From: an uncultured Pseudomonadota bacterium
Lineage (GTDB): Bacteria; Myxococcota_A; Polyangia; Fen-1088
DNA length: 64,000 bases
Assembly (NCBI GenBank): GCA_963847705.1
Contig: CAWKBC010000032.1
Location: 224,001 to 288,000, forward strand
Direction: 5' to 3'
Of the stretch, positions 44,631-63,452 are shown one piece after another. Position numbers and translations under genes: made by a program. Numbering within the stretch: position 1 is the first letter of the stretch; the number at the start of each line of letters is the position of its first letter. The notes beneath the pieces were generated by a model, which was not told the origin of the DNA, made no database searches, and was given only the letters and a program-made list of their open reading frames with translations.

Positions 44631-45131
44631 TCAGCCAGCCGCGCGGGTGGGCGCCATCGGGCCCAGCCAGGCCCGGGCGCGCCAGCGCCGGAGCGAGCGG
44701 CGAAGCTCGAACGCGGCGACCACGGCCAGGCGACCGAGAAGCCCCGCCGTCACTTCGAGGTCGACGCGCCGGCCGGCGCGCTCCACGGCGATCACGCGGC
44801 CACGAACCTCGGCGGCGGTCACGGGGCGGTCGATCTCCAGCGCCGCGTCTCCGCACAAGGTCAGGCGGGGAGCACGGGATGCGTCTTTTTGGATGGAGAG
44901 AACTCGATGCGCCACCGACCGCGATCCCGTCTGGCACAAAACCACGTCGGCGACATCGACGTCAGCGGCGGCGACCGGGGCGACGATCAGAACCTCGCTG
45001 TCCTCGATCGTCGGCGTCATGCTGCGCCCTCCGGCGCGGAATCGAACGCCGATCCCTTCAGCGAGCAACCCTTCGACGACGGATGCGAAGGCCCCTCGAT
45101 GCAGAGCGCTGTGGCCGTGACTCGATCTCAC
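44631..45131 (-). CDS. S24/S26 family peptidase (Ser/His, Sec11/SipW-like)
   Basis: GRSMTPTI (Ser), DVVL, VAHRV (His), LCGDA. Confidence 0.8.
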   Translation of the reverse strand: MRSSHGHSALHRGAFASVVEGLLAEGIGVRFRAGGRSMTPTIEDSEVLIVAPVAAADVDVADVVLCQTGSRSVAHRVLSIQKDASRAPRLTLCGDAALEIDRPVTAAEVRGRVIAVERAGRRVDLEVTAGLLGRLAVVAAFELRRSLRRWRARAWLGPMAPTRAAG

Positions 45132-45267
45132 GCCTCAACACATCGGAGTTTCCGTCGAGAAAATGAACGATCGGCGCGCGATTCTCGCTCGTGACCGCGG
45201 CGGAGATCTGACGGACGCGGGTGTCACATTTCAGACACGCCTCGACCAGGAGTGCACGGTTCAGTTG

Positions 45268-45443
45268 GCCGCGCGCTCGGTTTGCCGCGCGCTCGGTTTG
45301 CCGCCCGGCCCGTTTGCCGCGCGCTCGGTTTGCCGCCCGGCTCAGGTTTGCGGCGCGCTCGGTTTGCCGCGCAGCCCAGTTGCCGCGCGCTCGGTTTGCC
45401 GCCCGGCCCAGTTGCGGCGCGCCCAGTCGCTGCGCGCTCAGTT
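45268..45443. repeat. About 11 degenerate ~16-bp tandem units (consensus GCCGCGCGCTCGGTTT)
   Basis: Read directly; the last unit overlaps the kinase stop codon at 45438. Confidence 0.85.
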
Positions 45444-46314
45444 GCTGCGGACGAACGCCGGCGCGGCCGCGTCCGGAACGAAGCCGAGCTCGACCGAGCG
45501 GCAGCGGGCGGCGATGCGCTCCAGGGAGCCGAGCATGTCGTCCAGGCCGGCCGCGTCGTAGAACGGCGGAAAGCAGCAGGCGAAGAGGCGCGCGATCGAT
45601 TCGGTGGCCGCCACCGCCGTCATCTGGTTGCGGGGCGCGTGGCGCAGAAAGCAGATCCGATCGAGCGGGGCGCGCCCCTGATTCGAGATGCGCCCATCCC
45701 CATGCCAGGGTGTGCCGTACATCCAGACGACATCGCCTTCCTGGCGCAGCACGACGCGCTCGTCGCTCAGGATCTTCACGCCCGGCTCGGGGAGCCAAAG
45801 GCGGGCCATCGTCGTCTTGCCTGCGCCGGACTGGCCGGCGAACAGCGTCCCGCGGCCGTCGGCGTCGACCACGCCGCTGCCGTGGATGGCGACGCCGCGC
45901 CCCCGGGCCAGCAGGTGCACCATCACCAGCTCGTCGAGCGGATACTGCAACGGGTAGAGCGGCAGCCGCCCGGCGAAGACCTCCCGTCGCACCGAGACCT
46001 CCCCCTCGGTGAAGTCCGGGCTGAACGACGCCATCTGGTAGGGTCGCGTCCCGAGCGGCGCCGAGGTGAACACGAACTGAAGGCCCAGGCCGCCGCGGTA
46101 GAGGCGCCAGAGCCCCTTGCCCGAATCGAACAGCAGATCGCTTGCGTCGGGCTCGCGCGGGTCGCCCCAGTCGGCGCGAATCCGCACCTCGGGCCGCTCG
46201 GCGTCCGAGACGAACTTGGCGGCGGCGCCCGCGGCGGCGATCGGCAGAATCCTCCGCCCCGGACGAGAGCGCAATCTTGATTCCGGCGATGTCGAGCGCG
46301 AACGCTCCGCTCAT
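45438..46314 (-). CDS. HPr-kinase-related P-loop protein (RiPP-associated kinase) with an apparent 1-nt frameshift near 46249
   Basis: AIHGSGVV, FAGQSGAGKTT, ILSDERVVL, YGTPWHG; ATG 46314 overlaps the precursor stop (ATGA) but is out of frame with the body. Confidence 0.75.
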
Positions 46315-46493
46315 GAGCCGAACGTCATGCAGCCGCCGAGCGAGGTGCAGTCGGACTCCGCTGGTCCCGCCACCCCCATCGTCTTGCAGTTGCCGAGCAC
46401 GGCCTCTTCGGGGCGCAAGGCCACCTGCGACAGCGTCGGCTTCTCGTACGGTTTTCGTCCGGAGCCGGGCTCCGGTGGAGACTCTGGTGTCAT
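46311..46493 (-). CDS. RiPP precursor peptide (60 aa): leader with KPYEKPTL RRE-binding motif, core with three Cys and C-terminal Ser
   Basis: GGAG RBS 6 nt before the ATG; MTPESPPEPGSGRKPYEKPTLSQVALRPEEAVLGNCKTMGVAGPAESDCTSLGGCMTFGS; lies between the rSAM and kinase genes. Confidence 0.85.
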   Translation of the reverse strand: MTPESPPEPGSGRKPYEKPTLSQVALRPEEAVLGNCKTMGVAGPAESDCTSLGGCMTFGS

Positions 46494-46502
46494 CCGATGC
46501 TC

Positions 46503-47786
46503 CTATGTCCCTTCCGCGGCGCCACAGGCACCGCACCCACCGCTCGAACAAGACGACGACGAAGCGGTGCTCAAGACTTTGAGTGAGCTGGCCCGCGCCA
46601 GGGGCCGCAGCGCGCCAGCGGCCGCCTGGCCCGCCTGCACGCTGTCGACCGCGCGCAGGAGGCGTTCGTGGTGGGCGCCGCCCTCGCAGAACGCGCACTC
46701 GCCATGCGCCGGCGGCGTGAAGCCGACGACGCGGGCGCGCAGGTGGGCCACCTCGCAGAAGAACTCCACCGGCGCCTCCGGATCGCCATGCTCCAACTCG
46801 CTGGTGGCCGCGCAGGCGGAGCAGAGCGAACGAATGTGGCAGTCGGTGCACTTGGTCGGGCGGGTGATGGTCTTGTCGCGCACCTTGGCCAGGAAGCCCT
46901 CCCACCCCTCCTTGAAGCTCCCCCGGCGCAGATCGAACTGGTCGCTGTGCGACAGCACGCAGATGCTCATCTTCCCTTCGGGATCGATGGCGAAGGAATT
47001 GATGCCGCCGCCGCACTGGTAGACCTTGTCGCGGGTGCCGACCACCGGGCGCGCCCGGGAGGCCAGCTCGGCCCATCCGGCGCGGCGCACCGGATCGAGG
47101 ACGTCGAGCTCGACCATCTCGGCCGGGGAGAGCCGCACCTCGAGCGGGCTGTGCGAGCAGTCGATGCGGGCGTTGATCATCCCGTCGAACTTGAACTCCA
47201 CCCCCAGCTCCTCGGCGAACTGCTGCATCTGGGGGACCTCGTGGCGGTTGATGCTCACCGCGACGGTCTTGAGCCGCAGCGGCAGGCCGCGCTCGGTGAG
47301 CAGGCGGATGCCGCGCATGCAGCGATCGAACGAGCCCGGCACGCCGGTGAGGCGCTCGTAGGTCTCGCGCGTGCGGCCGTAGAGGGTGATCTCCACGGCG
47401 AACGGGCGCCACTCGGCCAGCATGTCGGCGAGCTCCGCCGTCAGCTGCGTGCCGTTGGTGAACAGCGTCACCAGGAGGCCGCGGCGCTTGGCGTGCTGGT
47501 AGATCTCCACGAAGTCGCGGCGGGCCAGGATCTCCCCGCCGGTGAGCAGCAGCCAGAGGCAGCCGGCGTCGGCCATCTCGTCGATGATCCGGAAGACCTC
47601 GGCGGTCGACAGCTCGCTCGCGCGCGCCGCCGCGTCCCCGACCGGGAGGTTGTTGTAGCAGTGCGCGCAGGCCAGCGGGCAGCGGTGGGTGAGCTCGATG
47701 GTGCCGTTGGTGGGCAGGCGTCCGCCTCGCGCCCGCCGGTAGATCTGCGCGCTGAAGTCGCCGTAGCTCCGGAGCGCGGCGTTCAT
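46503..47786 (-). CDS. Radical SAM/SPASM peptide maturase
   Basis: CPLACAHC (CxxxCxxC), TGGE, TNG; SPASM YQCGGG...GKMSIC and CTDCHIRSLCSAC...FFC; ATGA overlap with the PqqD gene. Confidence 0.93.
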   Translation of the reverse strand: MNAALRSYGDFSAQIYRRARGGRLPTNGTIELTHRCPLACAHCYNNLPVGDAAARASELSTAEVFRIIDEMADAGCLWLLLTGGEILARRDFVEIYQHAKRRGLLVTLFTNGTQLTAELADMLAEWRPFAVEITLYGRTRETYERLTGVPGSFDRCMRGIRLLTERGLPLRLKTVAVSINRHEVPQMQQFAEELGVEFKFDGMINARIDCSHSPLEVRLSPAEMVELDVLDPVRRAGWAELASRARPVVGTRDKVYQCGGGINSFAIDPEGKMSICVLSHSDQFDLRRGSFKEGWEGFLAKVRDKTITRPTKCTDCHIRSLCSACAATSELEHGDPEAPVEFFCEVAHLRARVVGFTPPAHGECAFCEGGAHHERLLRAVDSVQAGQAAAGALRPLARASSLKVLSTASSSSCSSGGCGACGAAEGT

Positions 47787-48100
47787 GGGGAGACCTCGCT
47801 GACGAGACCCTTGGCCAGCAGCAGCGCCACGAACTCCTGGACGTCGGCGGCGGCCTCGGCCTCGCTGACTTCGTACTCGCGCGACAGCGCGGCCGCCAGC
47901 GCCTGCACCGAGCTCTTCCCGTCGATCCATTTCCAGATCGAGGCGCCCACCGCGTTGAGGGTGAAGATCGACTCGAGGTCGCCGACGCCGCCGCGGACAG
48001 GAACGATGATGACGTCGTCGGCGATCGTGCGGCTGACGAAGCCTTCGGCCTTGCGAGGGAAGCGGGCAGACGAGATGCCTTCGGTGCTCAACACGTACAT
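47783..48100 (-). CDS. PqqD family RiPP recognition element (RRE)
   Basis: IFTLNAVGASIWKWIDG..SV..LA..L..EYEV...A..DV.EFV..L...GLV. Confidence 0.92.
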   Translation of the reverse strand: MYVLSTEGISSARFPRKAEGFVSRTIADDVIIVPVRGGVGDLESIFTLNAVGASIWKWIDGKSSVQALAAALSREYEVSEAEAAADVQEFVALLLAKGLVSEVSP

Positions 48101-48104
48101 AGTA

Positions 48105-50552
48105 TCAGCTGTCTGCCCTCGAACCTTGAGCCGCGTCAGCAAGATGGCGACGCTCGAGGCGCCTCCGACGTCGCAGCCCGGCCACCCCGCCGGAGGCCAT
48201 CAGGGCCCAGAGCACGAGCTGGCCCGGCCGCCCCCGCCCCGAAAGCTCGCATCCGCAGCCATCGCCGCTGGGAGGCAGGAGCGAGGCCGCGTCTTGGGAA
48301 CCGTCGCTGCCGCCGTGGCCGCTTGCACCGTCGCCCCGACCGGCGTCGGGCATTGTGGCGACCGACGCATCGGCGACCACCCCGGCGTCCGGCCCGGCGG
48401 CGTCGGTCCCGGCCCCGTCGGGGCCGAGGCCCGCGTCGCCCGGCGCCGGCGGCGGCGTGGGCAGGCCAAAAATTGTCGGATCGGCGAACAGGATCCAGGT
48501 CCGTTGCGCGTCGACGTCGGTGATGGCGTGCTTGGCCGCGATGGCGGCCTCGCCGAGCGAGGTGTGGGTCAAGCGCGCGACGAACGCCTGGTCGAGAACC
48601 CCCTGCTGGTCGAACGAGGTGAGCGTCGAGGAGGCCCAGACGGCGACGGCGCCGCCGGCGGGCGCCTTGGTGAGCGTCTCGGCCAGGCTCTCGGTGTACA
48701 CGTCCTGAAAAAAACCGTTCAGGCAGTTCATGCTGACGTAGATGGAGAGGGGGGCGTTGGTGAGCGCCGCGGCGTCGCTGCCCGAGAAGAGGCCATCCCA
48801 CACCGAGACCGATCCGTGGCCCATGTAGTTGACCAGGAACGGCCCGGCATCGAGCAGCGGAAGCAGGGCCGCCTCCGTCGAGCTCGGCTGGCTGAGAAAA
48901 AAATTGCTGGTCGGCATCGAGCCGGCGACCGACGCCGCGCTCGCCTGACTGTCCTCCTCGAACGAGAGGCCGGTCTCATCGGCGTCCGCGATGAAGAGCC
49001 CGCCCTGCGGCAGGTCGGCGGCGCCGCCGTAGCCCAGGATCTTCCCCACCACCGTCGACGCCTCCGAGGCCGTGCGGACCGAGAGTCGTCCGATGGCGAT
49101 GTCCTCGACGCCGTCGGCGTCCCAGTCGACGAACCAGCCATCGGAGGCGGTCTCCATCTGCTGCGTGTCGACGAGCTTGGTGGGGGCGAAGTCGAAGTCC
49201 CCCTGCCCCAGGAAGTTGCGCGGATCGAAGGAGGCGTCGCCGACCAGCAGCACGAACCGCGGCGCCGGCGTCCAGCTGCCGTGAACCGCCTGCAGAAAAT
49301 CGCGCACCGCGAAGGGCGTCTTGTCGCCGGCGCCGAACTCGTCGTACACGTCCTGCAGGTCGACCAGCTGCACCGACCAGCCCTGCTGCCGCCGCGCCGT
49401 CACCAGCGGCGCCAGCGCGTCGATGAAGAGAGCGTTCGAGAGGATCACCATCTCGCCGGCGCGCGGGTCCGTCCAGCGGGACGGCCGGCTGGCGGTGACC
49501 GACGAGGGCGCCACGACGGCGGCGCCGGTGAAGGCGTACAGCGCCGGCCAGGAGGTCTCCCCCGGTGTGTTCACCGTGACGGTGGTGCTCGACCCGGCGG
49601 TGACCACGCTGGTCACGAGCTCGATCGGGCTGGTCGGATCGGTCACGTCCATCACCCGCACGTCGGACGACGAGAACCCCGCGATGGCGATCGGCGTGGC
49701 GGGCGGCGCGGTCAGGTTGAGCGCGTTCCCGTCGGCGACGAACAGGTGCTGGTAGTCGATCTCCACGCTGGCCACCAGCGACTCGTCGGGAGAATCCCCC
49801 TCCCCGACCAGCAGAACGTCGTTGGCCCCCTCGCGCACGCTGACCGGCGAGAGCGCGCAGGTCTGGGAGTCCTGCCCGGCGAACGCGCAGACGCCGACCG
49901 GCTGGCCGTCGAGCGAGATCGCCACCTGGTGGTCTCCGGCCGTGACCCCCTGCAGGACGACCTGCAGCCCGGCCGGCTGCGCCCCGTCGAGGTGAGTGAC
50001 CGACACCGACTCGGTCACGCCGGCGGGGCCGACGACGTCGCCGAAGAAGTTGCTGGCTTCGCCGTTCTTCAGCGCCGCGAAGTAGTTGGTTCGCTGGCGC
50101 AGCACCGCGGCACCTGGAAAATCCTGGGGCGCCGCTCCGCTGGCCGGATACGCCGAGAGGGGGACGCGTTTGCCGGCCGTCCCCGGTCCGACGACCAGCC
50201 AGTAGGTGCGCGCCCCCGTCCAGAGCGTATCGCGCCCCTGGCCGTAGAACTCGATCGCCTCGCCGCTGTCGAACACCGCGTCGCCGTTGCCGGTGATCGA
50301 CAGCGCCTGTTCGACGCCGTCGGCGAAGAGCTGGAGCTGCGCCGGGTCGACCCCTGGAGCGAGCCCGGCCGCGACCAGGGCCGGCTGCGAGACGTGTTGC
50401 CACCCCGTCGAGGTCACCACCAGCTTGACGGCGGGCATCGCGGCCAGCTCCAGCTGGCTCGGCGCGCCCGGGCTGGCCGCAAATGCCGCGGGCGTCGCTG
50501 GCAGGCCGAACGCGCCGAACGCGCCGGCCACGACGAGAGACCAGCGCGCCAT
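48105..50552 (-). CDS. C25 family (gingipain/PorU-like) cysteine peptidase with signal peptide and MYXO-CTERM
   Basis: VKLVVTSTGW, IEFYGQG, DVYDEFG, VLLVGDASFDP, IAIGRLSV, catalytic NYMGHGS and SMNCLNG, WILFADP; tail GCGCELSG + TM + RRRRR. Confidence 0.9.
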   Translation of the reverse strand: MARWSLVVAGAFGAFGLPATPAAFAASPGAPSQLELAAMPAVKLVVTSTGWQHVSQPALVAAGLAPGVDPAQLQLFADGVEQALSITGNGDAVFDSGEAIEFYGQGRDTLWTGARTYWLVVGPGTAGKRVPLSAYPASGAAPQDFPGAAVLRQRTNYFAALKNGEASNFFGDVVGPAGVTESVSVTHLDGAQPAGLQVVLQGVTAGDHQVAISLDGQPVGVCAFAGQDSQTCALSPVSVREGANDVLLVGEGDSPDESLVASVEIDYQHLFVADGNALNLTAPPATPIAIAGFSSSDVRVMDVTDPTSPIELVTSVVTAGSSTTVTVNTPGETSWPALYAFTGAAVVAPSSVTASRPSRWTDPRAGEMVILSNALFIDALAPLVTARRQQGWSVQLVDLQDVYDEFGAGDKTPFAVRDFLQAVHGSWTPAPRFVLLVGDASFDPRNFLGQGDFDFAPTKLVDTQQMETASDGWFVDWDADGVEDIAIGRLSVRTASEASTVVGKILGYGGAADLPQGGLFIADADETGLSFEEDSQASAASVAGSMPTSNFFLSQPSSTEAALLPLLDAGPFLVNYMGHGSVSVWDGLFSGSDAAALTNAPLSIYVSMNCLNGFFQDVYTESLAETLTKAPAGGAVAVWASSTLTSFDQQGVLDQAFVARLTHTSLGEAAIAAKHAITDVDAQRTWILFADPTIFGLPTPPPAPGDAGLGPDGAGTDAAGPDAGVVADASVATMPDAGRGDGASGHGGSDGSQDAASLLPPSGDGCGCELSGRGRPGQLVLWALMASGGVAGLRRRRRLERRHLADAAQGSRADS

Positions 50553-50649
50553 GCGTTCCCCACATCGGGAGTCCCCTGACGGACTAAAGATGCGAATTCG
50601 GTCACCAACCGCTAAGGCCAGGCGGCAGCTCGACCGATTTCGGGTGAAG

Positions 50650-53600
50650 ATGACTCGGAGGAGAGCTCTGTTCGGCGTCTCGGGGGGAGTCCTGGCGCTC
50701 GCCATCGCCTGGCCGGCCGCCGTCCAGGCCGCCGCCTGCGCCACCACCGCCTGCGGTTCCGCCACCAGCGTGACCTACAACGGCGCGGCCTTGACCTTTG
50801 CCGGCGCTTCGACGAACGGGACGGTGCGCAGCGAGCTCTGGTACCTGGTCGCGCCGACGAGCGGCGTCCACAACGTGGTGGTCACCGCGCCCAACGCCGA
50901 CGCGGTCACCGCCACCTCGATGTCGTTCACCGGCGTCAACCAGACCACCCCCCTCGGCACCACGGTCTCGGCGATCGGCACCGGCACGACCACGTCGGTC
51001 TCCACCACCAGCGCGGTCGGCGAGCCGCTGTTCGACGTCGTCGGCGCCGTCGGAACCACCCCACCGACCGTGGCCGGCGCGACCCAGACCGTTCGCCAGA
51101 CCAACACCACCGCGACCGGCCTCGACCAGGTGGTCCTCGGCTCCAGCACCGCGCCGGGCGCGGGCGCCACGTCGATCAGCATGTCCTGGACCATCCCCAG
51201 CGCCGACTGGGCCCAGATCGCGGTCCCCATCCAGGCCTCCACCGCACTGACCGCCGTCGCGGTGAGCGCTCTGACCGCGACGTTGCAGCCCGACGGCGTG
51301 CTGGTCCAGTGGAGCGATGGCTATGAGCCGTCGTCGCTGGGATTCTACGTCTACCGCAGCGACGGTACCGGAGGCCGCGTCCGGCTGAACGCCTCGGTCA
51401 TCGCCGGCGGCGCGCTCGGCACGGGAGCGTCGTCGTTCTCCTGGAAGGACGCCTCGGCGGGCTGGGACGGCGCGGTGTCGTACTGGGTCGAAGACGTCGG
51501 CCTCGACGGCTCGATGAGCTGGTACGGTCCGGTCACCCCACGACCCGCCGGCGCCATCGACGCAACGGGCGGCGCGGCCGCGAGCTCGTCCGGCGGCGCC
51601 GCCAGCAGCTGGTCCGGCGCGGGCGGCCAGGCGCCGGCAGAATCGGCCGGGGCGGGCGGGTGCACGGTCGCCGCGCGCGATCCGCGCAGCACGCTGCTGC
51701 AGCTGGTGCTGGCGCTCGGCCTGGTCGCCGGCGTGCGGCGGCGGAAGCGGCTCGCCGCGCTGGTCGTCCTCTACGCCCTGGCGGTCGCCGCCAGCGGGCT
51801 GCTTTCGCCCCGGACCGCCGCAGGCGCGGGCGGCGTCGCCGTCGACGCGACCGCCACCGGGTCGGGCGCCAGCGGATTGACCTTCTCGCACACGATGGGC
51901 GCCGGCGCGAACGGGCTCCTGATCGTGGGGGTGGTCGTCCCGATCACCTGCGACGACACCACGACCGACGGGGCCAACTGCGGGGCCTGCGGCACGACCT
52001 GCGCGCAGGATGTCGGAGCTTCGCTCGGCACGGGTCTGCTCGGCCTGTGGCGCTTCGACGAGGGGAGCGGCACCACCTCGGCCGACTCGTCCGGCAACGG
52101 CAACACGGCCACCCTCTTCAACAGCCCGAGCTGGACCACCGGTTACTCCGGCGACGCCGTCGAGGGGAACGGCACCAGCAGCTACGTCGCGGCCAACATC
52201 GGGACCTGGTTCGGGGCGAACAACACCCTGTCGGTCTCCGCCTGGACCTACGTCAACGCCAGCTCCAGCGGCCCGGTGGTCGGGATCGCCGGGACCAACG
52301 GCTGGAACATGCCATTCCTCAGCGTCAACGGCTCGACCGTCTACGGTTGGCTGTGGGGCGTGCCCGGAACCGACCCGGCCAGCAGCCCCCTCGCGGCGAC
52401 GGTCACCCTCGACGCCTGGCACTTCCTGGCCATCACCTACGATCCGAACGGTGGTGGCGCGGGGATCGGCCAGGAGATCTTCTACGTCGACGGCATGGTC
52501 TCCAGCTCGGCCACCGGGACCTACCAGCCGTCTGGAACGAGCGACGTCTTCACCACGCAGATCGCCGGCGCAAAGCCCAACGGAGGCGCCATGGACAGCG
52601 TCCTGCTCGGCAAGGTCGACGAGGTGCGCGCCTACAACCGGACTCTGAGCGCCGCAGACATCACCGCGCTCTACGGCGGGCGGCTCACCTGCGCGGCCAG
52701 CACCTGCGCGGCCTGCTCCGGGGGCCAGACCGCTTGCAGCGGCAGCTGTACCGACACGTCGACCGACATCGACAACTGCGGCGGCTGCGGACACGCCTGC
52801 AACATCGCCGGCGGCGAAACCTGCGTGGGGGGAACTTGCACCTGCACCACCGGCACCGACTGCAGTGGCGTCTGCTCCACCACCTCCAACGATCCCAACA
52901 ACTGCGGTGGCTGTGGCATCGCTTGCGGAATGCCGACCAGCGCCGCCATCGACAGCGGGCTCATCGGGCACTGGAACCTCGATGAGGGGTCCGGCACGAC
53001 CTCGGCCGATTCGTCGGGGAACGGCAACACGGCGACACTCTCCGGCGCGACCTGGACCACAGGCTACTCCGGCGACGCGGTCGCGGGTGACGGCAGCTCT
53101 ACCTACGTGAGCGCCAACCTGGGGAGCTATTTCGGCACCAACGCCGCCCTCACCGCCAGCGCCTGGGTCTACGCCACCGCGACCACCAACGGTCCTGTCT
53201 TCGGCGTCACCTCCATCCCGGCGGGCGGCGGCTGGAACATGCCCTTCCTCAGCATCGCCGGCTCAACCGCTTACGGATGGTTGTGGGGGGTCCCGGGGAT
53301 CGACGGCGGCTCGAGCCCGCTGGCCGCCACCGTCAGCCTCGACGCCTGGCACTTCCTGGCCATCACTTACACGCCGTCGGGAGGGTCAGGGACGGAGAGG
53401 TTCTACGTCGACGGCGCGCTGGCCGGCACCGCGACCGGCGCCTACCAGCCCTCGGGCCAGGTCGACACCTGGTCCACCACCATCCCCGGCGCCAGGCCAA
53501 GCGCCGTCACCAACAGCTTCCTCAACGGCAAGGTTGACGAGGTGCGCGCCTACAGCCGCGCGCTCAGCGCCGCCGAGATCTCGATCCTCTACAACGCCCG

Positions 53601-54657
53601 CCAGACCTGTTCGTCGTCGATCTGCGGCGGCTGCACCGGCGGCGAGTCGCTCTGTGGCGGCGATTGCACCGACAAGACCATCGACGCCAGCAACTGCGGC
53701 GCCTGCGGCACCAGCTGCAACATCTCCGGCGGTGAGAGCTGCATCTCCAGCAGCTGCGGCTGCGCCAGCGGCACCGACTGCAGCACCGTCTGCGTCGACA
53801 CCACCTCCGATCAGAACAACTGCGGCGGCTGCGGCGCCCCCTGCGGCGCTGTCACCTGCGCCTCCTGCGGCAGCGGGATGGCGGGCCTGTGGCACCTCGA
53901 CGAGGGCTCCGGGTCGACGTCGGCCGATTCATCCGGCAACAACCACACCGCCACGCTCAACAGCAGCCCCGGCTGGGTGACGGGCGAGGCGGGCAACGGG
54001 CTGGCGTTCAACGGCACCAGCTACATGACGGCCACGCTGGGAAGCTGGTTCGGCAACAACAACCCCCTCTCCGCCAGCGCCTGGGTCTTCGCCACCTCCA
54101 CCACGAACGGGCCGATCTTCGGCGTCACCGACACCCTGCCGGGGACGAACTGGAACATGCCTTTCCTGAGCATTGCCGGGTCGACCGTCTACGGCTGGCT
54201 CTGGTCGATGGCCAACAACAATCCCCTGTCGGCGACGGTCTCGCTGAACGCCTGGCACCTCCTCACGATCACCTACGATCCGAACGGAGGCGCCGCCGGC
54301 ACCGGCCAGGAGATCTTCTACGTCGACGGCGCGGTGTCGCAGTCCTCGGACATCACCTACTGGCCCTCGGGCAACAGCGACTTCCTCACCACGCAGATCC
54401 AAAACGCCAAGCCGAGCGGCGTGAACAACATTCTGACCGGCACCATCGACGAGCTCCGCGCCTATACCCGCGTCCTCTCGGCGGGTGAGATCGCGCTGCT
54501 CTACAACGCGCGTCAGACCTGCGTGGGCTCCGTCTGCACCGGCTGTCCGACGGGGACCACCAGCTGCGGCGGCGGCGTCTGCCAGAACACCGCCTGCGGT
54601 GCCTGCGGAAGTCCCTGCTCGGGCACCCAGCAGTGCGTCTCCGGCACCTGCATGTAG
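50650..54657 (+). CDS. Large secreted polyprotein-like adhesin: signal peptide, beta domain, C25-associated TAV domain, internal MYXO-CTERM, second signal peptide, three LamG domains with Cys-rich repeats
   Basis: Signal ending AVQA; TAVAVSALTA...GFYVYR...YWVEDVGLDG..WYGPV; GGCTVAA-TM-RRRKR-TM; three W.(F/L)DEGSG.TSADSSGN...(V/I)DE(V/L)RAY.R.LS LamG units. Confidence 0.85.
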   Translation: MTRRRALFGVSGGVLALAIAWPAAVQAAACATTACGSATSVTYNGAALTFAGASTNGTVRSELWYLVAPTSGVHNVVVTAPNADAVTATSMSFTGVNQTTPLGTTVSAIGTGTTTSVSTTSAVGEPLFDVVGAVGTTPPTVAGATQTVRQTNTTATGLDQVVLGSSTAPGAGATSISMSWTIPSADWAQIAVPIQASTALTAVAVSALTATLQPDGVLVQWSDGYEPSSLGFYVYRSDGTGGRVRLNASVIAGGALGTGASSFSWKDASAGWDGAVSYWVEDVGLDGSMSWYGPVTPRPAGAIDATGGAAASSSGGAASSWSGAGGQAPAESAGAGGCTVAARDPRSTLLQLVLALGLVAGVRRRKRLAALVVLYALAVAASGLLSPRTAAGAGGVAVDATATGSGASGLTFSHTMGAGANGLLIVGVVVPITCDDTTTDGANCGACGTTCAQDVGASLGTGLLGLWRFDEGSGTTSADSSGNGNTATLFNSPSWTTGYSGDAVEGNGTSSYVAANIGTWFGANNTLSVSAWTYVNASSSGPVVGIAGTNGWNMPFLSVNGSTVYGWLWGVPGTDPASSPLAATVTLDAWHFLAITYDPNGGGAGIGQEIFYVDGMVSSSATGTYQPSGTSDVFTTQIAGAKPNGGAMDSVLLGKVDEVRAYNRTLSAADITALYGGRLTCAASTCAACSGGQTACSGSCTDTSTDIDNCGGCGHACNIAGGETCVGGTCTCTTGTDCSGVCSTTSNDPNNCGGCGIACGMPTSAAIDSGLIGHWNLDEGSGTTSADSSGNGNTATLSGATWTTGYSGDAVAGDGSSTYVSANLGSYFGTNAALTASAWVYATATTNGPVFGVTSIPAGGGWNMPFLSIAGSTAYGWLWGVPGIDGGSSPLAATVSLDAWHFLAITYTPSGGSGTERFYVDGALAGTATGAYQPSGQVDTWSTTIPGARPSAVTNSFLNGKVDEVRAYSRALSAAEISILYNARQTCSSSICGGCTGGESLCGGDCTDKTIDASNCGACGTSCNISGGESCISSSCGCASGTDCSTVCVDTTSDQNNCGGCGAPCGAVTCASCGSGMAGLWHLDEGSGSTSADSSGNNHTATLNSSPGWVTGEAGNGLAFNGTSYMTATLGSWFGNNNPLSASAWVFATSTTNGPIFGVTDTLPGTNWNMPFLSIAGSTVYGWLWSMANNNPLSATVSLNAWHLLTITYDPNGGAAGTGQEIFYVDGAVSQSSDITYWPSGNSDFLTTQIQNAKPSGVNNILTGTIDELRAYTRVLSAGEIALLYNARQTCVGSVCTGCPTGTTSCGGGVCQNTACGACGSPCSGTQQCVSGTCM

Positions 54658-54697
54658 CGCCGGAGCGTCGCGCTTCAGAAGACGCAGCGCTTCGTCG

Positions 54698-57379
54698 ATG
54701 AGTCTGCAACAGATGCGCACCAATCTCAGGCTCACCAAAGGTCTCGCCTTGCTGGCGATGAGTGGCATGTTCCTGGTTGCCTGCGGCGACGCGTCCCCCG
54801 GAAGCTCGGGCGGCGCCGCCGGCGCCGGCGGTGCCCAGACAGGCGGCGCGGGTGGGTCAGGGACCGGCGGCACGACCGGGACGGGTGGGCTGGCCGGCGG
54901 CTCGGGAGGCGGCAGCGTCGGGACGGGCGGCGGCGGCGGCACGGGCGGGGGCGGCGGCGGCGGCACGGGCGGCGGCGTCGGCACGGGCGGCGGCGTCGGG
55001 TCGGGCGGCGGCGTCGGCACGGGCGGCGTGAGCGGTGCGGCCGGCAGCCAGGCGACCGGCGGCAGCGGCGGCGCGGCCGGGGGCGCGACGGGCGGAGGCA
55101 GCGGTGCTGGCGGTTCGGCGATGGCCGGCGCAGGCGGCGGAACCACGGACGCGGGGGCGGTCGACACCGGAATCGACGTCCCGCCCCCTCCCCCGGCGCC
55201 AGCGACGACCATTCCCACCACCCCGATCGACTTCGGAGCGATCGACTGCGGCGCGGCCGGCGGAACGCTTCCCTTCTCCTTCACCAACACGGGAACCGCC
55301 AGTCTCCATTACCGCGCCGCCATCGATCTGGGCGGCACCTTCTCGCTGCAGGGGGCCGCGGCCGACGGCTCCCTCACCGGCGACGTTGCCCCCGGCTCGA
55401 CCGCACAGCTGACGATCGTGGCCGGGATCATCCCGACGACCAGCGCCGTCGGCGCCGTCCTCACCGGAGCGTTGACGGTGGCGACCAACGCCGCCGGTGC
55501 CGACAACACGCAGATCGCCATCGCCATGACCGCCCAGGGAAGCACCTGCACGCTCACCTGTGGCGCGTTCACCAAGTGTACGCCCAGCAGCGCCTCTCCC
55601 TATTGCGCCAACACGGAGACCGACAACATCAACTGCGGCGCCTGCGGTCACACCTGCGGCACCGGTGAGGTCTGCACCAACGGCAGCTGCGAGCTCACCT
55701 GTGGCGCGCTCACCAAGTGCTCACCGTCGTCCGGCAGCGATTACTGCGCCAACACCACCACCGACAGCAACAACTGCGGTGCCTGCGGCAACGTCTGTGG
55801 CACGGGGCAAGTCTGCAGCGGCGGCGTCTGCACCCTCTCTTGCGGCGCGCTCACCAAGTGCTCGCCGTCGACGGGCGCCCCCTATTGCGCCAACACGCTG
55901 ACCGACAACGCCAACTGCGGCACCTGCGGCAACCCCTGCACCGGCGCCGACGTCTGCTCGAACGGCGTCTGTACGCTCACCTGCGGCGCGCTCACCACCT
56001 GCGCTCCCACCAGCGGCGCCCCCTACTGCGCCAACACGCTGACCGACAACGCCAACTGCGGCACCTGCGGCAATCCCTGCACCGGCGCCGACGTCTGCAC
56101 CAACGGCGTCTGCACCATCGCCTGCGGCGCGCTCTCGACCTGCACGCCGTCGAGCAGCGCCCCCTACTGCGCCAACTTCGCCACCGACAACGCCAACTGC
56201 GGCAGCTGCGGCAACGTCTGCGGCGCCGGCCAGGTCTGCAGCGGCGGCGGCTGCACGCTCACCTGCGGCGCGCTCTCGAAGTGCACCCCCACGAGCGGCA
56301 CCCCCTACTGCGCCAACTTCGCCACCGATACCGCCAACTGCGGCAGCTGCGGCAACGTCTGCGGCGCCGGCCAATCCTGCATGGGCGGCGTCTGCCAGGC
56401 CAACTGCTCGGGGAGCGAGACGGCCTGCGGCGGGTTGTGCACCAACACCTCGTTCGATCCGAGCAACTGCGGCGCCTGCGGCAACGGCTGTGCGTTCGCG
56501 CAGGGCTCCGCGGCCTGCGCCGGTGGGGGGTGCTTCCTCACCGCCTGCAACGCCGGCTACGCCGACTGCAACCACGCCCAGTCGGACGGCTGCGAGACCA
56601 ACACCGACAGCGACGCCGCCAACTGCGGCGCCTGCGGCAAGTCCTGCGCGCTCGGGGAGACCTGCGTCTCGGCCGTCTGCACCGCCAACCTCTCGCAAGG
56701 GCTCATCGGCTACTGGAAGATGGACGACGCCCCGGGCTCGACCAAGGCCGCCGACAGCGGCCCCAACAACCTCCCCGGGTTCGTCCAGGGGAACGTCACC
56801 TTCCTTCCCACGGCCGGCAAGCAAGGCTCGGGCGCGATCTCCCTGGCGGGCAGCGGCTACATCCGCGTCCCCTTCCCCAACAACGCCATCAACCAAGGGA
56901 CCGGCATCGCCATCCCGCAGGGAAACATGACCTTCTCGATGTGGTTCAAGACCAACACCACGGGCCCGGGCGGCTTGCAGGTCGTGGAGGGGAACGCAGC
57001 CTGGGGCTCGGGCTACGATCGCGTGGTGGGCAGCGGAACCGGCTCGACGTTGCAGTACAACGCTTGGCACGAGGTCAACATGACAGGGGTCGTGACCGTC
57101 AACGACGGCAACTGGCACCTCATGACCTACGTCCTCGACGAGTCGAACGGCTTCCTGACCTATATCGACGGCAGCCCCGACGCCAGCTCTTCGACGCTGA
57201 CCGACAATTGCGGCGAAGGGTGCAGCGGCTTCAACTGGGCCGCGGAGTACTGGATCGGCACCGGTGCCGACGGCCGTTTCAGCGCCGGCAACTTCAGTGG
57301 CCTCATCGACGACGTGCGCATGTACAACCACGTCCTTTCGCCGGCCGCGGTGATGCAGCTCTACAACGCCACCAAGTAG
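54698..57379 (+). CDS. Lipoprotein with Gly-rich linker, Ig-like domain, about eight Cys-rich (D..NCG.CG) repeats and a C-terminal LamG domain
   Basis: LVAC lipobox; six repeats at a 120-bp period; GLIGYWKMDD...GLIDDVRMYNHVLS. Confidence 0.85.
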   Translation: MSLQQMRTNLRLTKGLALLAMSGMFLVACGDASPGSSGGAAGAGGAQTGGAGGSGTGGTTGTGGLAGGSGGGSVGTGGGGGTGGGGGGGTGGGVGTGGGVGSGGGVGTGGVSGAAGSQATGGSGGAAGGATGGGSGAGGSAMAGAGGGTTDAGAVDTGIDVPPPPPAPATTIPTTPIDFGAIDCGAAGGTLPFSFTNTGTASLHYRAAIDLGGTFSLQGAAADGSLTGDVAPGSTAQLTIVAGIIPTTSAVGAVLTGALTVATNAAGADNTQIAIAMTAQGSTCTLTCGAFTKCTPSSASPYCANTETDNINCGACGHTCGTGEVCTNGSCELTCGALTKCSPSSGSDYCANTTTDSNNCGACGNVCGTGQVCSGGVCTLSCGALTKCSPSTGAPYCANTLTDNANCGTCGNPCTGADVCSNGVCTLTCGALTTCAPTSGAPYCANTLTDNANCGTCGNPCTGADVCTNGVCTIACGALSTCTPSSSAPYCANFATDNANCGSCGNVCGAGQVCSGGGCTLTCGALSKCTPTSGTPYCANFATDTANCGSCGNVCGAGQSCMGGVCQANCSGSETACGGLCTNTSFDPSNCGACGNGCAFAQGSAACAGGGCFLTACNAGYADCNHAQSDGCETNTDSDAANCGACGKSCALGETCVSAVCTANLSQGLIGYWKMDDAPGSTKAADSGPNNLPGFVQGNVTFLPTAGKQGSGAISLAGSGYIRVPFPNNAINQGTGIAIPQGNMTFSMWFKTNTTGPGGLQVVEGNAAWGSGYDRVVGSGTGSTLQYNAWHEVNMTGVVTVNDGNWHLMTYVLDESNGFLTYIDGSPDASSSTLTDNCGEGCSGFNWAAEYWIGTGADGRFSAGNFSGLIDDVRMYNHVLSPAAVMQLYNATK

Positions 57380-57503
57380 CCTCGAGGCGGAACAGCGCGC
57401 CTGTGCCAGCGGCGAAGCTGACAGTCCAGCTCTCTTCGCGCGCGCCCGGAGGGTCGTGTCCCTCGTCATAGGTGTGGGCGCCGCCTTGGACTAGTCTCAG
57501 GCG

Positions 57504-58064
57504 ATGAGATTACCTGCCGCTTTCGTTGCGTCGCTCGTCCTGGCCGTCACAGCTTGTGGCGGTTCATCGGGAGGTGGGAGCGCGACCGATGGTGGCAAGG
57601 ATCGCGCGGGCAACACGGGCGGTAGCTCCGGCGGCGGCCAACCAGGCCAGGGAGGCATTGCCGGCGCCGCGGGAAACTCCGGTCGCGGAGGAGCCGCGGG
57701 CGCCGCCGGCGGCAACGCGGGGCTGGGCGGAGCGGCTGGCGCAAGCGCCGGTGGTGCGGCCGGATCCGCCAACCTCGACGGTGGCGCGGCCGGCGCGGGC
57801 GGAGGCGCCGGGCAAGGTGGCGCCGGGCGCGACGGCGGCGCCGACGCGCGGGCAGACGGCGGCAACTGCCCCAGCCAGAATCCCGACCCCTGCCTCTGCG
57901 GACGCCCCGACGCGAACCCGGTCTCGGCGTCCGACTGCACGCGCGAGAAGGCCTGTCGCGCGGCCGGAGGCATCTGGGAGCCATACGTCGTCTACCTGGC
58001 CGAGGGCGGAGTGTACGGACCGCGCTGCCAGTCCGTCGACGGCGCCGCCTTCGACGCCCCCTGA
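57504..58064 (+). CDS. Small lipoprotein with Gly-rich linker and a Cys-rich C-domain
   Basis: VTAC lipobox; TAGTCT-6nt-ATG. Confidence 0.7.
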   Translation: MRLPAAFVASLVLAVTACGGSSGGGSATDGGKDRAGNTGGSSGGGQPGQGGIAGAAGNSGRGGAAGAAGGNAGLGGAAGASAGGAAGSANLDGGAAGAGGGAGQGGAGRDGGADARADGGNCPSQNPDPCLCGRPDANPVSASDCTREKACRAAGGIWEPYVVYLAEGGVYGPRCQSVDGAAFDAP

Positions 58065-58117
58065 GCCCGCGCTCGCCACTGCCAAACCGGACCTGACCGA
58101 GAGCCTCTCGATTTTAA

Positions 58118-58439
58118 CGAGCGAGAGCTCCGCGTGGCTTGGCCACGCGGAGCGGAGGGGGACCGGGCAGAGCGAGCACAGCGTGACGGACGGGGATGCG
58201 AGCGCAGCGTGGCGGACGGGAGAGCGAGCGCAGCGTGGCGGACGCGAGAGCGAGCGCAGCGTGGCGGACGCGAGAGCGAGCGCAGCGTGGCTCTGCCACG
58301 CGGAGCGAGGGGGGACCGGGGGGTGCGAGCGGCAGCGAGCCGCCCCCCGTAAAATCAAAGGGGTGCGAGCGGCAGCGAGCCGCCCCCCGTAAAATCAAAG
58401 GGGTGCGAGCGGCAGCGAGCCACCCCCCGTAAAATCAAA
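58118..58439. repeat. Composite intergenic REP-like element: 11-bp hairpin, 26-bp unit x3.5, 40-bp unit x3
   Basis: CTCCGCGTGGC-ttg-GCCACGCGGAG near 58128; GCGAGCGCAGCGTGGCGGACGCGAGA at 58198-58291; GGGGTGCGAGCGGCAGCGAGCCGCCCCCCGTAAAATCAAA at 58320-58439. Confidence 0.85.
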
Positions 58440-59052
58440 GCACGAAGTTGACCAGCAGCTTCTCCTCGCCGCGCAGAAGCTCGGTCGGGAACCGCCACTT
58501 CTTGAGATGACTGCTGTAACAGTGGCGGACGTCTCGGGCCGCACCGTCGGCGCCCAGGATCTGCACCAGCTCGACGGCGCCGTTGGCGCCAATCTCGAAG
58601 GCGGCGCCGAGCTCGAGCGGTGGGCCGCGATCGGGATCGTCGAGGCACTCGCGCAGCTCGGGTGCCCGCTCGGCGGCGAAGGCGCGCAACGCCTTCGTGC
58701 GCTCCCCCTCTTCGAGCGGCTTCCCGGCGGGCAGCGGCGTGAGCGCCGCAAGGGCGGCGCGCCCCACCTTGCCATGCCGCGCGACGTGCGACGCGCCGAT
58801 GGCGCCGCCGCCGCCGCTCGCCGCCGGCGGCGCGACGCAGGCGACCGTGGGGGGACAGACGGCGGGCGGCGTGGTGACCGCGGGAACCGCGCGCCTCAGA
58901 GCCAGCAGGTAGCCGGCGCCGCCGCCGGCTGCGAGCAGCAGGAGGGCCAGCGCCGCCAGCGCCGGCCCGCGCGGTCGACCGCCCCCGCGCCGGCCCGGCG
59001 CGCCGCCGCCGGAATGGCGCAACCAGGCGGGGAGATCGGCGGAGGGTGCCAT
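58435..59052 (-). CDS. Single-TM protein with a C-terminal AgmX/PglI (TonB-C-like) domain
   Basis: TM ALAALALLLLAAGGGAGYLL; ELRECL...AFEIGANGAVELV...VRHC....KKWRFP. Confidence 0.6.
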   Translation of the reverse strand: MAPSADLPAWLRHSGGGAPGRRGGGRPRGPALAALALLLLAAGGGAGYLLALRRAVPAVTTPPAVCPPTVACVAPPAASGGGGAIGASHVARHGKVGRAALAALTPLPAGKPLEEGERTKALRAFAAERAPELRECLDDPDRGPPLELGAAFEIGANGAVELVQILGADGAARDVRHCYSSHLKKWRFPTELLRGEEKLLVNFVL

Positions 59053-59072
59053 GGCGTGTCTGCGTCGATCGC

Positions 59073-60152
59073 TCAGTGGCTCGTCGCCAGCGTGGCGACG
59101 CTGCTGCCGAGCTGCTGGATGGCGGCGGCCGGCATCGAACCGATGAGCTGGCAGAAATCGGCGCTCTGCCCGGTGCCGGGATTGGCGGCGTTGAGCGCCG
59201 CCATGAGTGGCGTGAAGTAGAGGTTCGGCGACGGGCCGATGTCGTCGAGCACGTTGAGCGGGAACCCCGTCACCGCTTTGCACTTGGCCTCGAAGTCGGT
59301 CTGGCTCTGCCCTTCGGCGGTGGCGATCGCCACCTGCACCACCTGCGACGGCGAGATGCTGGTGCCGCTCGAGAACGAGAGCCAGGTGACGCCGCCGGAG
59401 GCGTCGGTGTCGAGGAAGATGTCCGTGGGCGAGCGGCCGTTGACGTTGCAAGCGTCGCTCGGCAGCGCGCAGCGCCGGGCGACCGGCTGCAGGTAGACGA
59501 CGATGAACAGATCGCGGGGGCTGTCGAAGAAGGCGCTGCGATCGATCCCACCCTGCCCCGCCGGCAGCGCGGCCGAGTCGAGGCCCTGCCCGAAGCCGAT
59601 CAGGTTTTTCGCCTCGCAGGACTGGCCGTCGCCGTCGAAGTTCCCCGATCCGGCCAGGATCTGCAGCGCCAGCGGCAGGTCGGCGTCGTCGATGTTCGCC
59701 AGCGTCGGCGCGATGATCGGCAGCAGGCTCTGGTAGTTGCTGAGCCCCGCGTCTGCCCCCAGGAGGCCCAGCAGCGCCAGCGCAGGGGGGAGCGACTGGC
59801 TGGAGCTCGAGCCCTGGCGGCCGAGCAGCAGCCGCGGCCCGAACTCGTCACCGTAGGTCGAGATGAGCCCCATGTTCGCGATCGAGAGCCCCCGCGAGCC
59901 CAGGTAGTTCATGAAGCCGGTCATGATCCCGGCGTACTGGTTGGAGAGGTTCACCGAGGTTCGCGCGAGGTTGGCGACGAAGAGGATGCTCGCCGTCAAG
60001 GGAGGTGGCTGCGGCAGCGCGTCGGGGCGGACGGGAAACGGGACCGGGATGTAGATCTTCTTGGTCATCCCGCCGTCGGGGCTGGCGGGCGTGATGATCG
60101 TGCAACCGGCCCCCGCCAGCACCAGAATCAAGAGGAGCGATCGGGTCTTCAT
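59073..60152 (-). CDS. Lipoprotein with a degenerate vWA-like fold
   Basis: GAGC lipobox; SILFVANL...F..YL....MGLIST resembles the vWA beta1-alpha1-beta2 region without a MIDAS; ATGA overlap with the upstream gene. Confidence 0.6.
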   Translation of the reverse strand: MKTRSLLLILVLAGAGCTIITPASPDGGMTKKIYIPVPFPVRPDALPQPPPLTASILFVANLARTSVNLSNQYAGIMTGFMNYLGSRGLSIANMGLISTYGDEFGPRLLLGRQGSSSSQSLPPALALLGLLGADAGLSNYQSLLPIIAPTLANIDDADLPLALQILAGSGNFDGDGQSCEAKNLIGFGQGLDSAALPAGQGGIDRSAFFDSPRDLFIVVYLQPVARRCALPSDACNVNGRSPTDIFLDTDASGGVTWLSFSSGTSISPSQVVQVAIATAEGQSQTDFEAKCKAVTGFPLNVLDDIGPSPNLYFTPLMAALNAANPGTGQSADFCQLIGSMPAAAIQQLGSSVATLATSH

Positions 60153-61957: not shown

Positions 61958-61971
61958 GAAACCACTCCCAG

Positions 61972-62685
61972 CTAGTGGACCCTAATCACGACCCTGCGAT
62001 TTTCGCTGCGGGCGCGCGTCTGCGCGGAGGCATCGCCCTGCACGGGCGTGGCCGGCCGCGTGTCGGCGTATCCCTGGGCGGAGAGTCGCTGCGGACTGAC
62101 CCCCGCCGCGGTGAAGGACTTGAGCACGTTGATCGCCCGCGCCGAGGAGAGCTCCCAGTTCGAGTCGAACCGGCCCGTGTGGATCGGGACATCGTCGGTG
62201 TGCCCCTCGATGGCGATCTGGTAGCGGTTGTCGATGGTGGGGAGCAGCTTCCCCACCCGATCGATCGCCGCGCGCCCGGTCGGCGTGATGTCGGCCTGGC
62301 CGCTGTCGAACAGCAGCGCATTCTTCAGCTCCATGCGCAGCCCCTCGTCGTCGACGACGGTCTTCACCTGCTGGGTCAGCCCCTGCGCCGCGATCACCGC
62401 GTCGATCTTCTCCTTCAGCACGTCGAGCGAGGGCGGCGGTGCCTGATGCGAGATCGCCGCGGAGACCATCTCGAACTTGCGCAGGTTCACCTTCGACATG
62501 GCCAGCGCCAGGATCAGAAACGCCAGCAACAGGCTGACCACGTCGACGTAGGGGATGAGCCAGGAGGTGTCGTCCTCCTCGCCGTAGGCCAGCAGATCGC
62601 TGGCATCGGGGCCCCGGCTGGGGCTGGCCTTGGCGGAGCGCTTGGCGCCGCCGCCGGGCCCGCCGCCGGTCTCGAGGCCGATCAC
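61972..62685 (-). CDS. motB: MotB family stator protein (TM with conserved Asp, plug, OmpA-like PG-binding domain)
   Basis: WLIPYVD..SLLLAF; LLFDSG; IEGHTD; NWELSSARA; GYADTRP; NRRV; GTGA overlap with the motA stop. Confidence 0.9.
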   Translation of the reverse strand: MIGLETGGGPGGGAKRSAKASPSRGPDASDLLAYGEEDDTSWLIPYVDVVSLLLAFLILALAMSKVNLRKFEMVSAAISHQAPPPSLDVLKEKIDAVIAAQGLTQQVKTVVDDEGLRMELKNALLFDSGQADITPTGRAAIDRVGKLLPTIDNRYQIAIEGHTDDVPIHTGRFDSNWELSSARAINVLKSFTAAGVSPQRLSAQGYADTRPATPVQGDASAQTRARSENRRVVIRVH

Positions 62686-63443: not shown

Positions 63444-63452
63444 CTTCCCTTT

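Follow-up and report, generated by a model that had tools for sequence, protein, structure and literature searches.

What is a modified peptide for when the operon that makes it is headed by a surface protease? The question arises from a 64,000-nt stretch of contig CAWKBC010000032.1 (positions 224,001 to 288,000; assembly GCA_963847705.1, an uncultured bacterium of the GTDB lineage Myxococcota_A; Polyangia; Fen-1088), referred to below as the window. On its minus strand, a gene for a secreted C25-family cysteine peptidase is followed by a cassette for a putative peptide that is made on the ribosome and modified after translation (RiPP), with genes for a RiPP recognition element (RRE), a radical SAM enzyme, a 60-aa precursor, an HprK-like kinase and an S26-like protein, and a divergent gene encodes a large protein with the so-called TAV domain. 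The locus joins two questions, the roles of phosphopeptides and the function of C25 enzymes outside Bacteroidota. An earlier note, made from the sequence alone, had proposed that the peptide may be a cofactor, anchor or tag linked to surface proteins by the C25 enzyme and not an antibiotic.

In our analysis, the locus is best read as a protein sorting system linked to a RiPP, because the C25 enzyme is closer to PorU than to gingipains, the TAV domain looks like a sorting domain, and the cassette and C25 are syntenic in both directions of search. The peptide is likely a handle tying surface proteins to the cell coat, not an antibiotic. The proposal of RiPP-dependent sorting or decoration stood as regards synteny, the PorU-like character of C25 and a predicted PorU-type cleavage position at TAV; dependence in the strict sense did not, as the coupling is not obligate and both cassette and C25 also occur alone. 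Four features escaped the earlier note: the leader-peptidase role predicted for S26, the invariance of the terminal Ser, the frameshift in the kinase and the setting among polysaccharide genes.

Coupling of the cassette with C25 and TAV genes

The same gene set recurs in 38 loci from other genomes (L-labels denote loci and G-labels genomes, G000 being the source genome). Within these loci we found the RRE in 37, the precursor in 35, the kinase in 31, S26 in 30, TAV in 25, C25 in 23 and a nucleotidyltransferase (NTase) in 11, the profiles having been built from the same loci, some of which are short contigs. The closest relatives of the radical SAM enzyme come from Polyangia, Myxococcales and uncultured proteobacterium records, followed by Acidobacteriota and others. 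Synteny of C25/TAV genes with radical SAM-precursor sets of other genomes, on which the earlier note had staked its idea, was found both forward and in reverse. Going forward, a C25 gene lies within the fetched stretch in 18 of the 23 loci of at least 15 kb, and four of the other five have a C25 elsewhere in the genome. Relative to the cassette it is placed upstream, downstream, divergent, convergent or fused.

Co-presence was also seen at the level of whole genomes. The sample of the phylum Acidobacteriota (281 genomes) contained the radical SAM enzyme in 34 and C25 in 103; with the centre genome excluded as a seed, C25 was present in 27 of 33 radical SAM genomes and in 75 of 247 others, an odds ratio of 10 that kinship makes too high, and the sample includes at least one more seed genome. 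For 22 of the 38 radical SAM matches in this sample a listed C25 lies at most 12 kb away, and the C25-linked enzymes include ones far from the query clade, with precursors of their own. Among 121 Polyangia-type relatives both genes occurred in 19, radical SAM only in 5, C25 only in 6 and neither in 91, so that C25 was carried by 19/24 radical SAM carriers vs 6/97 non-carriers; it accompanied 19 of the 20 close radical SAM enzymes, and the latter accompanied all 19 close C25s. About 12 of the Polyangia-type genomes were alignment seeds, and all eight non-seed genomes with a close radical SAM enzyme have C25 as well.

In the reverse direction, among 40 C25 loci whose genomes do not contain this radical SAM enzyme, 21 adjoin other RRE/kinase peptide cassettes. 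The second 20 of these loci held kinase, RRE, radical SAM, S26 or NTase genes within the stretch in 15 cases, and cassette genes were present at 20 of the 28 loci outside a passenger-less C25 subfamily. Five of the eight misses there are paralogues in G520 and G359, genomes with kinase-RRE-NTase sets elsewhere or beside another C25 copy. The kinase signature was noticed in 11 of 14 C25 loci examined for it, with a background of some six kinase-like matches in the 6.1-Mb source genome, about one per Mb. Partner peptides belong to different families: other radical SAM clades, whose precursors end in Ser/Thr, radical SAM-free sets, lasso-like precursors and fusions of RRE, Tat-like signal and Cys-rich core. 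What stays constant is the RRE with an HprK-like kinase, often joined by NTase and S26, and in L058, L099 and L101-L104 the C25 gene has the kinase on one side and S26 on the other. Cassette type goes with C25 clade (20 changes vs 42.5 with shuffled labels, a difference inflated by near-copies). A functional link of the cassette with the C25/TAV pair is likely, and we hold it with good confidence.

The fusions of about 165 aa (L047:7054-7563, L093:8900-9406, L086, L089-L095) combine the RRE with a twin-arginine-like signal and a Cys-rich core and accompany an HprK-rel-A-like kinase and NTase beside TAV-C25 in genomes without the radical SAM enzyme; for the five that were tested, NCBIfam yielded nothing at 1e-6. 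Directly downstream of giant TAV-C25 genes we observed lasso-like precursors accompanied by a kinase (L109:6761-7336, L111:8740-8967). The kinase profile A5 gave zero matches in ten C25 genomes, which reflects a limit of its sensitivity, because in five of the ten (G520, G359, G443, G483, G444) RRE or radical SAM genes have more distant HprK-rel-A-like kinases as neighbours. A phylum search centred on G000 matched 4 of 301 genomes, a sample unlike the Polyangia relatives that was used for three distant loci alone.

The C25 peptidase and the TAV domain

The C25 protein (815 aa; 48105..50552, minus strand, ATG at 50552 and stop at 48105; Pfam PF01364, E 5e-63) is a PorU-like secreted cysteine peptidase built of a signal peptide, N-terminal beta domains, a catalytic domain and a MYXO-CTERM tail. 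Its catalytic residues are His579 in YMGHG (48816..48818, minus strand) and Cys610 in MNCLNG (48723..48725, minus strand), both invariant in the alignment rows of 74 C25 homologues. The MYXO-CTERM sorting signal (48159..48263, minus strand) scored 20.6 bits on TIGR03901.2 (cut-off 20) with the tail alone, the whole-protein scan giving no report.

In sequence and in fold the enzyme is nearer PorU than gingipains. Profile search of solved structures returned PorU first (E 5.5e-36) and gingipain R next (3.6e-26), and fold search with the C25 model (pLDDT 96) gave 6.7e-32 for PorU vs 2.8e-17 for gingipain. Family, His-Cys dyad and the best sequence and fold match, N-terminal region included, are shared with PorU (PDB 6ZA2). 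True orthology was rejected, since C25 reached 158.7 bits on NF033707, far below the cut-off of 420 (NF052324: 127.8 vs 450). Unlike PorU, the C25 enzyme here is anchored by MYXO-CTERM, or in its family fused to the substrate, and its neighbours are RiPP genes instead of Wbp/Vim genes. [quoted passage not shown] Our literature search found no publication on substrates of PorU-like C25 enzymes outside Bacteroidota, and the accessible part of the myxosortase preprint mentions neither C25 nor gingipain nor PorU.

PorU cleaves in the linker ahead of a seven-strand domain, with a preference for a small residue at +1, and couples its cargo to the amine of a Ser, Gly or Ala carried on a sugar (PMC11969387, PMC7468200; these and the other papers cited by PMC number were accessible in part, and statements drawn from them refer to that part). 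A comparable arrangement is predicted for the divergent TAV gene (50650..54657, plus strand), the ATG of which lies 97 nt from that of C25. The motif described in the earlier note is present and reads TAV...GFYVYR...YWVED...YGPV, while the description of the product as an adhesin turned out too simple: it comprises a passenger, TAV, a CTERM-like segment, a second hydrophobic segment and LamG domains, arranged as signal peptide, passenger half-domain, TAV, membrane hairpin, the other half-domain and three LamG domains with Cys-rich spacers. The TAV domain (51223..51546, plus strand) is a predicted sorting domain with a fibronectin type III (FnIII)-like seven-strand sandwich, and its fold begins directly after an invariant Thr (51250..51252, plus strand), the predicted P1 residue of a C25 cut at T|AV. 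Like PorU cargo, it presents a seven-strand sandwich after a linker and a small +1 residue, so T|AV would fit the PorU cut pattern; the cut-site sequence was not found in the accessible text of PMC12860637.

The Thr motif occurred in 125 of 131 passenger-bearing TAVs (preceding Pro in 74, following Ala in 57), a raw count that excludes four unanchored rows and short fragments, with the P2' residue fixed by the pattern. The full-length passenger-less TAV-C25 proteins shown (about 900 aa) have no in-register Pro-Thr. Fold search with TAV returned generic FnIII-like/Ig matches with Z up to 10.5 and no CTD among the 50 rows shown, and the ESM Atlas returned unnamed clusters alone (0.82). In two Hymenobacter cargo proteins the TAV profile covers the full domain just ahead of the T9SS signal (38 and 42 bits, against a maximum of 7.2 bits over 1000 shuffles), TAV being homologous to this domain preceding the CTD, and on the last domain of a Herpetosiphon protein it scores 94 bits; these proteins were chosen as top hits of a plasmid search. 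The Herpetosiphon plasmid protein (L121:5925-8348) ends in TAV, and one gene of its operon bears the annotation sortase family protein.

Acidobacteriota usually encode a single passenger-TAV-C25 chain, the passengers being nucleases, LamG, Ig, DUF11 and others. A clade of signal-TAV-C25 proteins of about 900 aa without passenger (L053-L057, L060-L064, L116, L117) is almost never found beside a cassette. In the TAV protein of the window the passenger domain is circularly permuted (50650-52000): its second half opens the protein and the first half stands after the membrane hairpin. Both halves are in normal order within one domain in P0363 and P0325. The permuted order is conserved in 20 close relatives, and therefore domain complementation may be what holds the LamG part. 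The internal Cys/transmembrane/Arg segment (51646..51750, plus strand) resembles CTERM signals, with 18.8 bits on JDVT-CTERM, under the cut-off of 27. Here (51640-51830), as in L039 and L023, it is followed immediately by a second signal-like segment in one open reading frame (ORF). The same hairpin links C25 to passenger-TAV in L023 and in a second C25 gene of the source genome (C47, L039:8295-13925; 1876 aa), ordered C25-CTERM-signal-DUF2341/LamG-TAV-CTERM and adjoining a MacAB/TolC-like exporter.

The peptide cassette and its relatives

The genes listed in the earlier note were present as described, from C25 with its intact dyad and MYXO-CTERM signal to S26, and its tight spacing from C25 to the kinase was confirmed: a 4-nt gap between C25 and RRE, an ATGA overlap of RRE and radical SAM, a 9-nt gap before the precursor and an ATGA overlap of precursor and kinase. 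The discrete RRE (47783..48100, minus strand; 105 aa) belongs to the PqqD family (PF05402, E 2.5e-19). The radical SAM enzyme (46503..47786, minus strand; 427 aa; PF04055, E 2.4e-20) has SPASM-type cysteines, invariant in 28 homologues, with 17 bits on PF13186, below the cut-off of 21.5, and it scores below the cut-off of each NCBIfam family shown. The precursor (46311..46493, minus strand; 60 aa) carries the YxxP RRE motif, PEEAVLG, a terminal Gly-Ser and the invariant residues Cys36, Lys37, Cys49 and Cys55; in a 28-row alignment YxxP, P-x-EA-x-L, CK and two further Cys are fixed. Across all loci, the last residue is Ser in 49 and Thr in 2 of the 51 precursor hits, one of the Thr cases being in a frameshifted copy.

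The HprK-like kinase (45438..46314, minus strand) starts at the ATGA overlap, 46314, and has its reading frame broken by a single surplus base near 46247-46249. This base is absent from six close loci, and all seven crossing contigs of relatives, from four public runs, have one base fewer at the site. A genuine pseudogene was rejected as default reading. The frameshift is likely an assembly error, not an established one, because the comparison contigs are from relatives and not from the same strain. The S26/archaeal-type signal peptidase-like protein (44631..45131, minus strand) starts 306 nt downstream of the kinase stop; its Ser, His and Asp are invariant in 21 aligned rows, there is no N-terminal membrane segment, and it is predicted to be the leader peptidase. 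Between kinase and S26 lies a GC-rich imperfect tandem repeat with a 16-nt unit (45247..45442) in seven overlapping copies; in L001 and L002 the two genes are separated by about 150 nt less. Judging from these genes, the product would most likely be a peptide cross-linked by thioethers, phosphorylated on its terminal Ser and free at its N-terminus.

Among the nearest known systems are the linear polyphosphorylated peptides (LPP) that Bacillota make with LppA/K/B/S/D/N (Popov et al. 2026, PMC13381572), in which LppS was shown to cut the leader with help of the RRE, and the same paper gives the roles of HprK/RRE/NTase phosphopeptides such as paeninodin and LPP as unknown. Both systems have a discrete RRE, a YxxP leader, an HprK-like kinase and a soluble archaeal-type signal peptidase with Ser-His-Asp. 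The family of our cassette is often found with a PF14907 NTase and in polysaccharide loci, and S26 proteins resembling it fall in cluster 3 of the sequence similarity network in the accessible part of that paper, left unstudied there. In contrast to LPP, the cassette adds a radical SAM enzyme and three invariant Cys, its leader reads PEEAVLGxCK in place of HQxIxFETxxS (LPP consensus YxxPxVLxHQxIxFETxxS), with only YxxP in common, its conserved Ser is terminal and not at core position 3, the ORFs scanned here hold neither MsbA-like exporter nor NTase, and it is coupled to C25/TAV. On the latter the LPP main text, as far as accessible, is silent, C25 appearing only as one column of an 834-column domain matrix. 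The product probably differs from the linear LPP polyphosphorylated at Ser3, because the conserved Ser is terminal and a radical SAM enzyme is present. Strict LPP membership was rejected on leader consensus, NTase and exporter; to judge from its sequence, the cassette is a radical SAM variant of the LPP pathway, outside LPP proper.

With the phosphorylated and phosphoglycosylated lasso peptides paeninodin and pseudomycoidin (PsmK/PsmN) it shares an HprK-like kinase, a precursor ending in Ser, an RRE and, in many loci of the family, a PF14907-type NTase. In pseudomycoidin the kinase phosphorylates the terminal Ser and PsmN is required for hexoses on the phospho-Ser; neither pseudomycoidin nor paeninodin showed antibacterial activity (PMC6993621). 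Lasso membership was rejected, as the ORFs scanned contain no macrolactam cyclase or B2 peptidase; radical SAM and S26 genes are there instead. Gene sets of RRE, radical SAM/SPASM and kinase-like proteins are likewise known as SynChlorMet (TIGR04248-04251) and HPr-rel-A (TIGR04352/04353) cassettes. Both of these are defined by genomics alone, and every score on their families fell far below its cut-off. SynChlorMet has two radical SAM enzymes where the cassette has one, and it was rejected on scores (ScmC 16.5 against a cut-off of 125, ScmD 30.9/100, ScmE 88.4/400, ScmF 74.7/400). Sactipeptide/ranthipeptide systems, whose maturases include CteB and PapB, resemble the cassette in radical SAM/SPASM enzyme, RRE and Cys-conserved precursor. 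They differ in that our enzyme scores 68 bits on AlbA vs 850 and 91 on StsB vs 625, in the discrete instead of fused RRE, and in the kinase, S26 and C25 partners.

Many cassettes, with and without C25, are situated in Wza/Wzc/Wzy/glycosyltransferase loci. The locus ORFs contain no PF14907 NTase; the single PF14907 gene of the source genome is on another contig (G000 C23), with oxidoreductase, hexapeptide acetyltransferase, FkbM, GT1 and AsnB-like neighbours (L118:6257-17447), a neighbourhood resembling, by gene type only, the Wbp pathway that leads to the linking sugar of P. gingivalis. A second, distant radical SAM cassette of the source genome (C17, L040:8318-11404; precursor ending in Ser, kinase, RRE, radical SAM) lies near GDP-mannose dehydratase, epimerase and GT2 genes. 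S26 domain fusions vary by lineage: to a Wza-like polysaccharide export protein (L084:3552-5000), to NTase (L015, L035) and to passenger-TAV-C25 (L016, L019).

Mechanism, alternatives and flanking genes

In the mechanism we propose, a small cross-linked phosphopeptide would be the acceptor through which a PorU-like surface transpeptidase ties passenger proteins to the polysaccharide coat. The RRE would bind the YxxP leader, as in LPP and lasso systems, the radical SAM enzyme would make thioether cross-links, as the three invariant Cys suggest, and the kinase may phosphorylate the terminal Ser, by analogy with paeninodin and pseudomycoidin. S26, taken to act like LppS, would cut the leader near EEA|VLG or AVLG|xC and free an N-terminal amine, with the invariant Lys37 as second possible nucleophile. 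The phosphate could be joined to sugar with the help of the PF14907 NTP transferase encoded elsewhere in the genome, following the precedent of PsmN. Outside the inner membrane C25, on the model of PorU, would cut T|AV before the TAV domain and move the passenger's newly made C-terminus onto the peptide amine. That the peptide serves the transpeptidase as amine acceptor and glycan tether is the most economical mechanism, which we put forward tentatively, as falling somewhat short of an even chance.

More speculative still, yet possible, is a widespread T9SS-independent sortase system with a ribosomal phosphopeptide as covalent linker: C25 would join TAV-tagged proteins to the peptide amine, the terminal phosphoserine would be bonded to capsule or lipopolysaccharide (LPS) glycan, and interchangeable cassettes (several radical SAM clades, linear, lasso-like, RRE-Tat-Cys) would supply the linker. 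This would give a RiPP a structural role and could explain the capsule-locus position of LPP and paeninodin clusters. The anchor model, if true, would mean a new RiPP function, a new route of Gram-negative surface display in abundant soil phyla and possibly a protein-peptide ligase tool. The parts have known relatives in LPP and PorU, and the combination would be categorically new if the peptide-protein bond is real; no publication describing it was found in a search that left most subscription literature outside. The operon is compact, with a predicted cut at T|AV, the catalytic Cys of the enzyme and a 60-aa precursor with one terminal Ser, and a Cys-to-Ala control would be clean because enzyme and substrate are on separate genes.

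A number of observations weigh against the peptide as linker. The acceptors known for PorU are individual sugar-borne amino acids, with no peptides among them. The first 20 reverse loci, those of best scores, showed cassette genes in only six, the misses including nine passenger-less proteins and five paralogues in two genomes holding the cassette elsewhere; 11 of 12 passenger-less C25 loci were without cassette genes, and none lies within 20 kb of the second C25 gene of the source genome (C47). C25 was not found in the cassette-bearing G418, G586, G588, G469, G507 and G499, the re-search having been run without positive control, where G418 has nearly its whole genome on one contig and a cassette without RRE and S26 hits; nor was it found in the cassette-bearing G301 or within 20 kb of the cassettes L042-L043. 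Several C25-free cassettes are situated in Wza/Wzc/Wzy/glycosyltransferase loci, and no exporter, NTase or polysaccharide gene was found at this locus in the ORFs scanned. The Thr-motif count comes from Thr-rich linkers, and the TAV profile also matches tandem FnIII-like repeats (69,874 clusters at E 0.001), so that some of its members are plain structural modules. In Bacillota, LPP and paeninodin clusters are located in capsule loci with a core set lacking C25 (PMC13381572), and because of this the partner that is truly shared may be polysaccharide; a common tie to polysaccharide of the surface could account for a large part of the co-occurrence.

In a rival reading, C25 cuts at T|AV and, in the manner of PorU, attaches passengers directly to an amino-acyl sugar that belongs to LPS or exopolysaccharide, and the phosphopeptide has its own place as matrix component or primer of the same polysaccharide, all within a cell-coat module without peptide-protein bond. 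The PorU precedent, the cassettes in polysaccharide loci irrespective of C25, the capsule position of LPP and paeninodin clusters, the existence of C25-free cassettes and the sugar-related neighbours (oxidoreductase, acetyltransferase, glycosyltransferase, AsnB-like) of the sole PF14907 gene speak for it. We consider it doubtful in view of the tight C25-cassette operon here and in Polyangia relatives with no polysaccharide gene beside, the insertion of C25 between kinase and S26 in several lineages and the fusion of S26 to passenger-TAV-C25 in L016 and L019.

Improbable, in our view, is a C25 acting as autoprocessing or maturation protease with the peptide as its regulator or substrate, be it that the peptide activates or de-represses passenger release by T|AV hydrolysis or that the exported peptide is trimmed or cyclised to a free signal. 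Clan CD proteases include both peptide ligases and ligand-activated autoproteases, and single passenger-TAV-C25 chains with very varied passengers, several paralogues per genome and the intact dyad would suit such a role. The closest structure, however, is that of the sortase PorU, and the cassette already includes a predicted leader peptidase. Related C25s moreover adjoin unrelated core peptides, and a linker fits better than a specific ligand because these share just RRE, kinase and, mostly, terminal Ser/Thr. Very unlikely is chance co-transfer without functional link, in which a secreted RiPP of the ordinary antimicrobial or signalling kind would have shared a mobile island with genes for surface proteins. 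Its patchy distribution (24 of 121 relatives) and the nesting of Polyangia C25s among Acidobacteriota ones in the tree (support 90-91, not starred) agree with transfer, but the linkage persists through numerous gene orders, through fusions and across four or more unrelated precursor families, genome-level co-presence holds even where the genes are apart, the ORFs scanned hold no immunity or exporter gene, and pseudomycoidin and paeninodin lack antibacterial activity (PMC6993621).

As to the surroundings, the earlier statement that no RiPP exporter or immunity gene is adjacent agreed with our scan of 19 ORFs (34910-63926), which contained neither; the sole transporter among them is an amino-acid ABC importer. 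Immediately after the TAV gene we observed a Cys-rich STIG1/MXAN_6577-like and LamG lipoprotein-like ORF (54485-57379), and a gene similar to it comes after S26 in L022. Further on, the minus strand of 57500-63926 carries gliding-motility-like genes (AgmX/PglI C-terminal, GltJ-like, FliG-C, MotA/TolQ).

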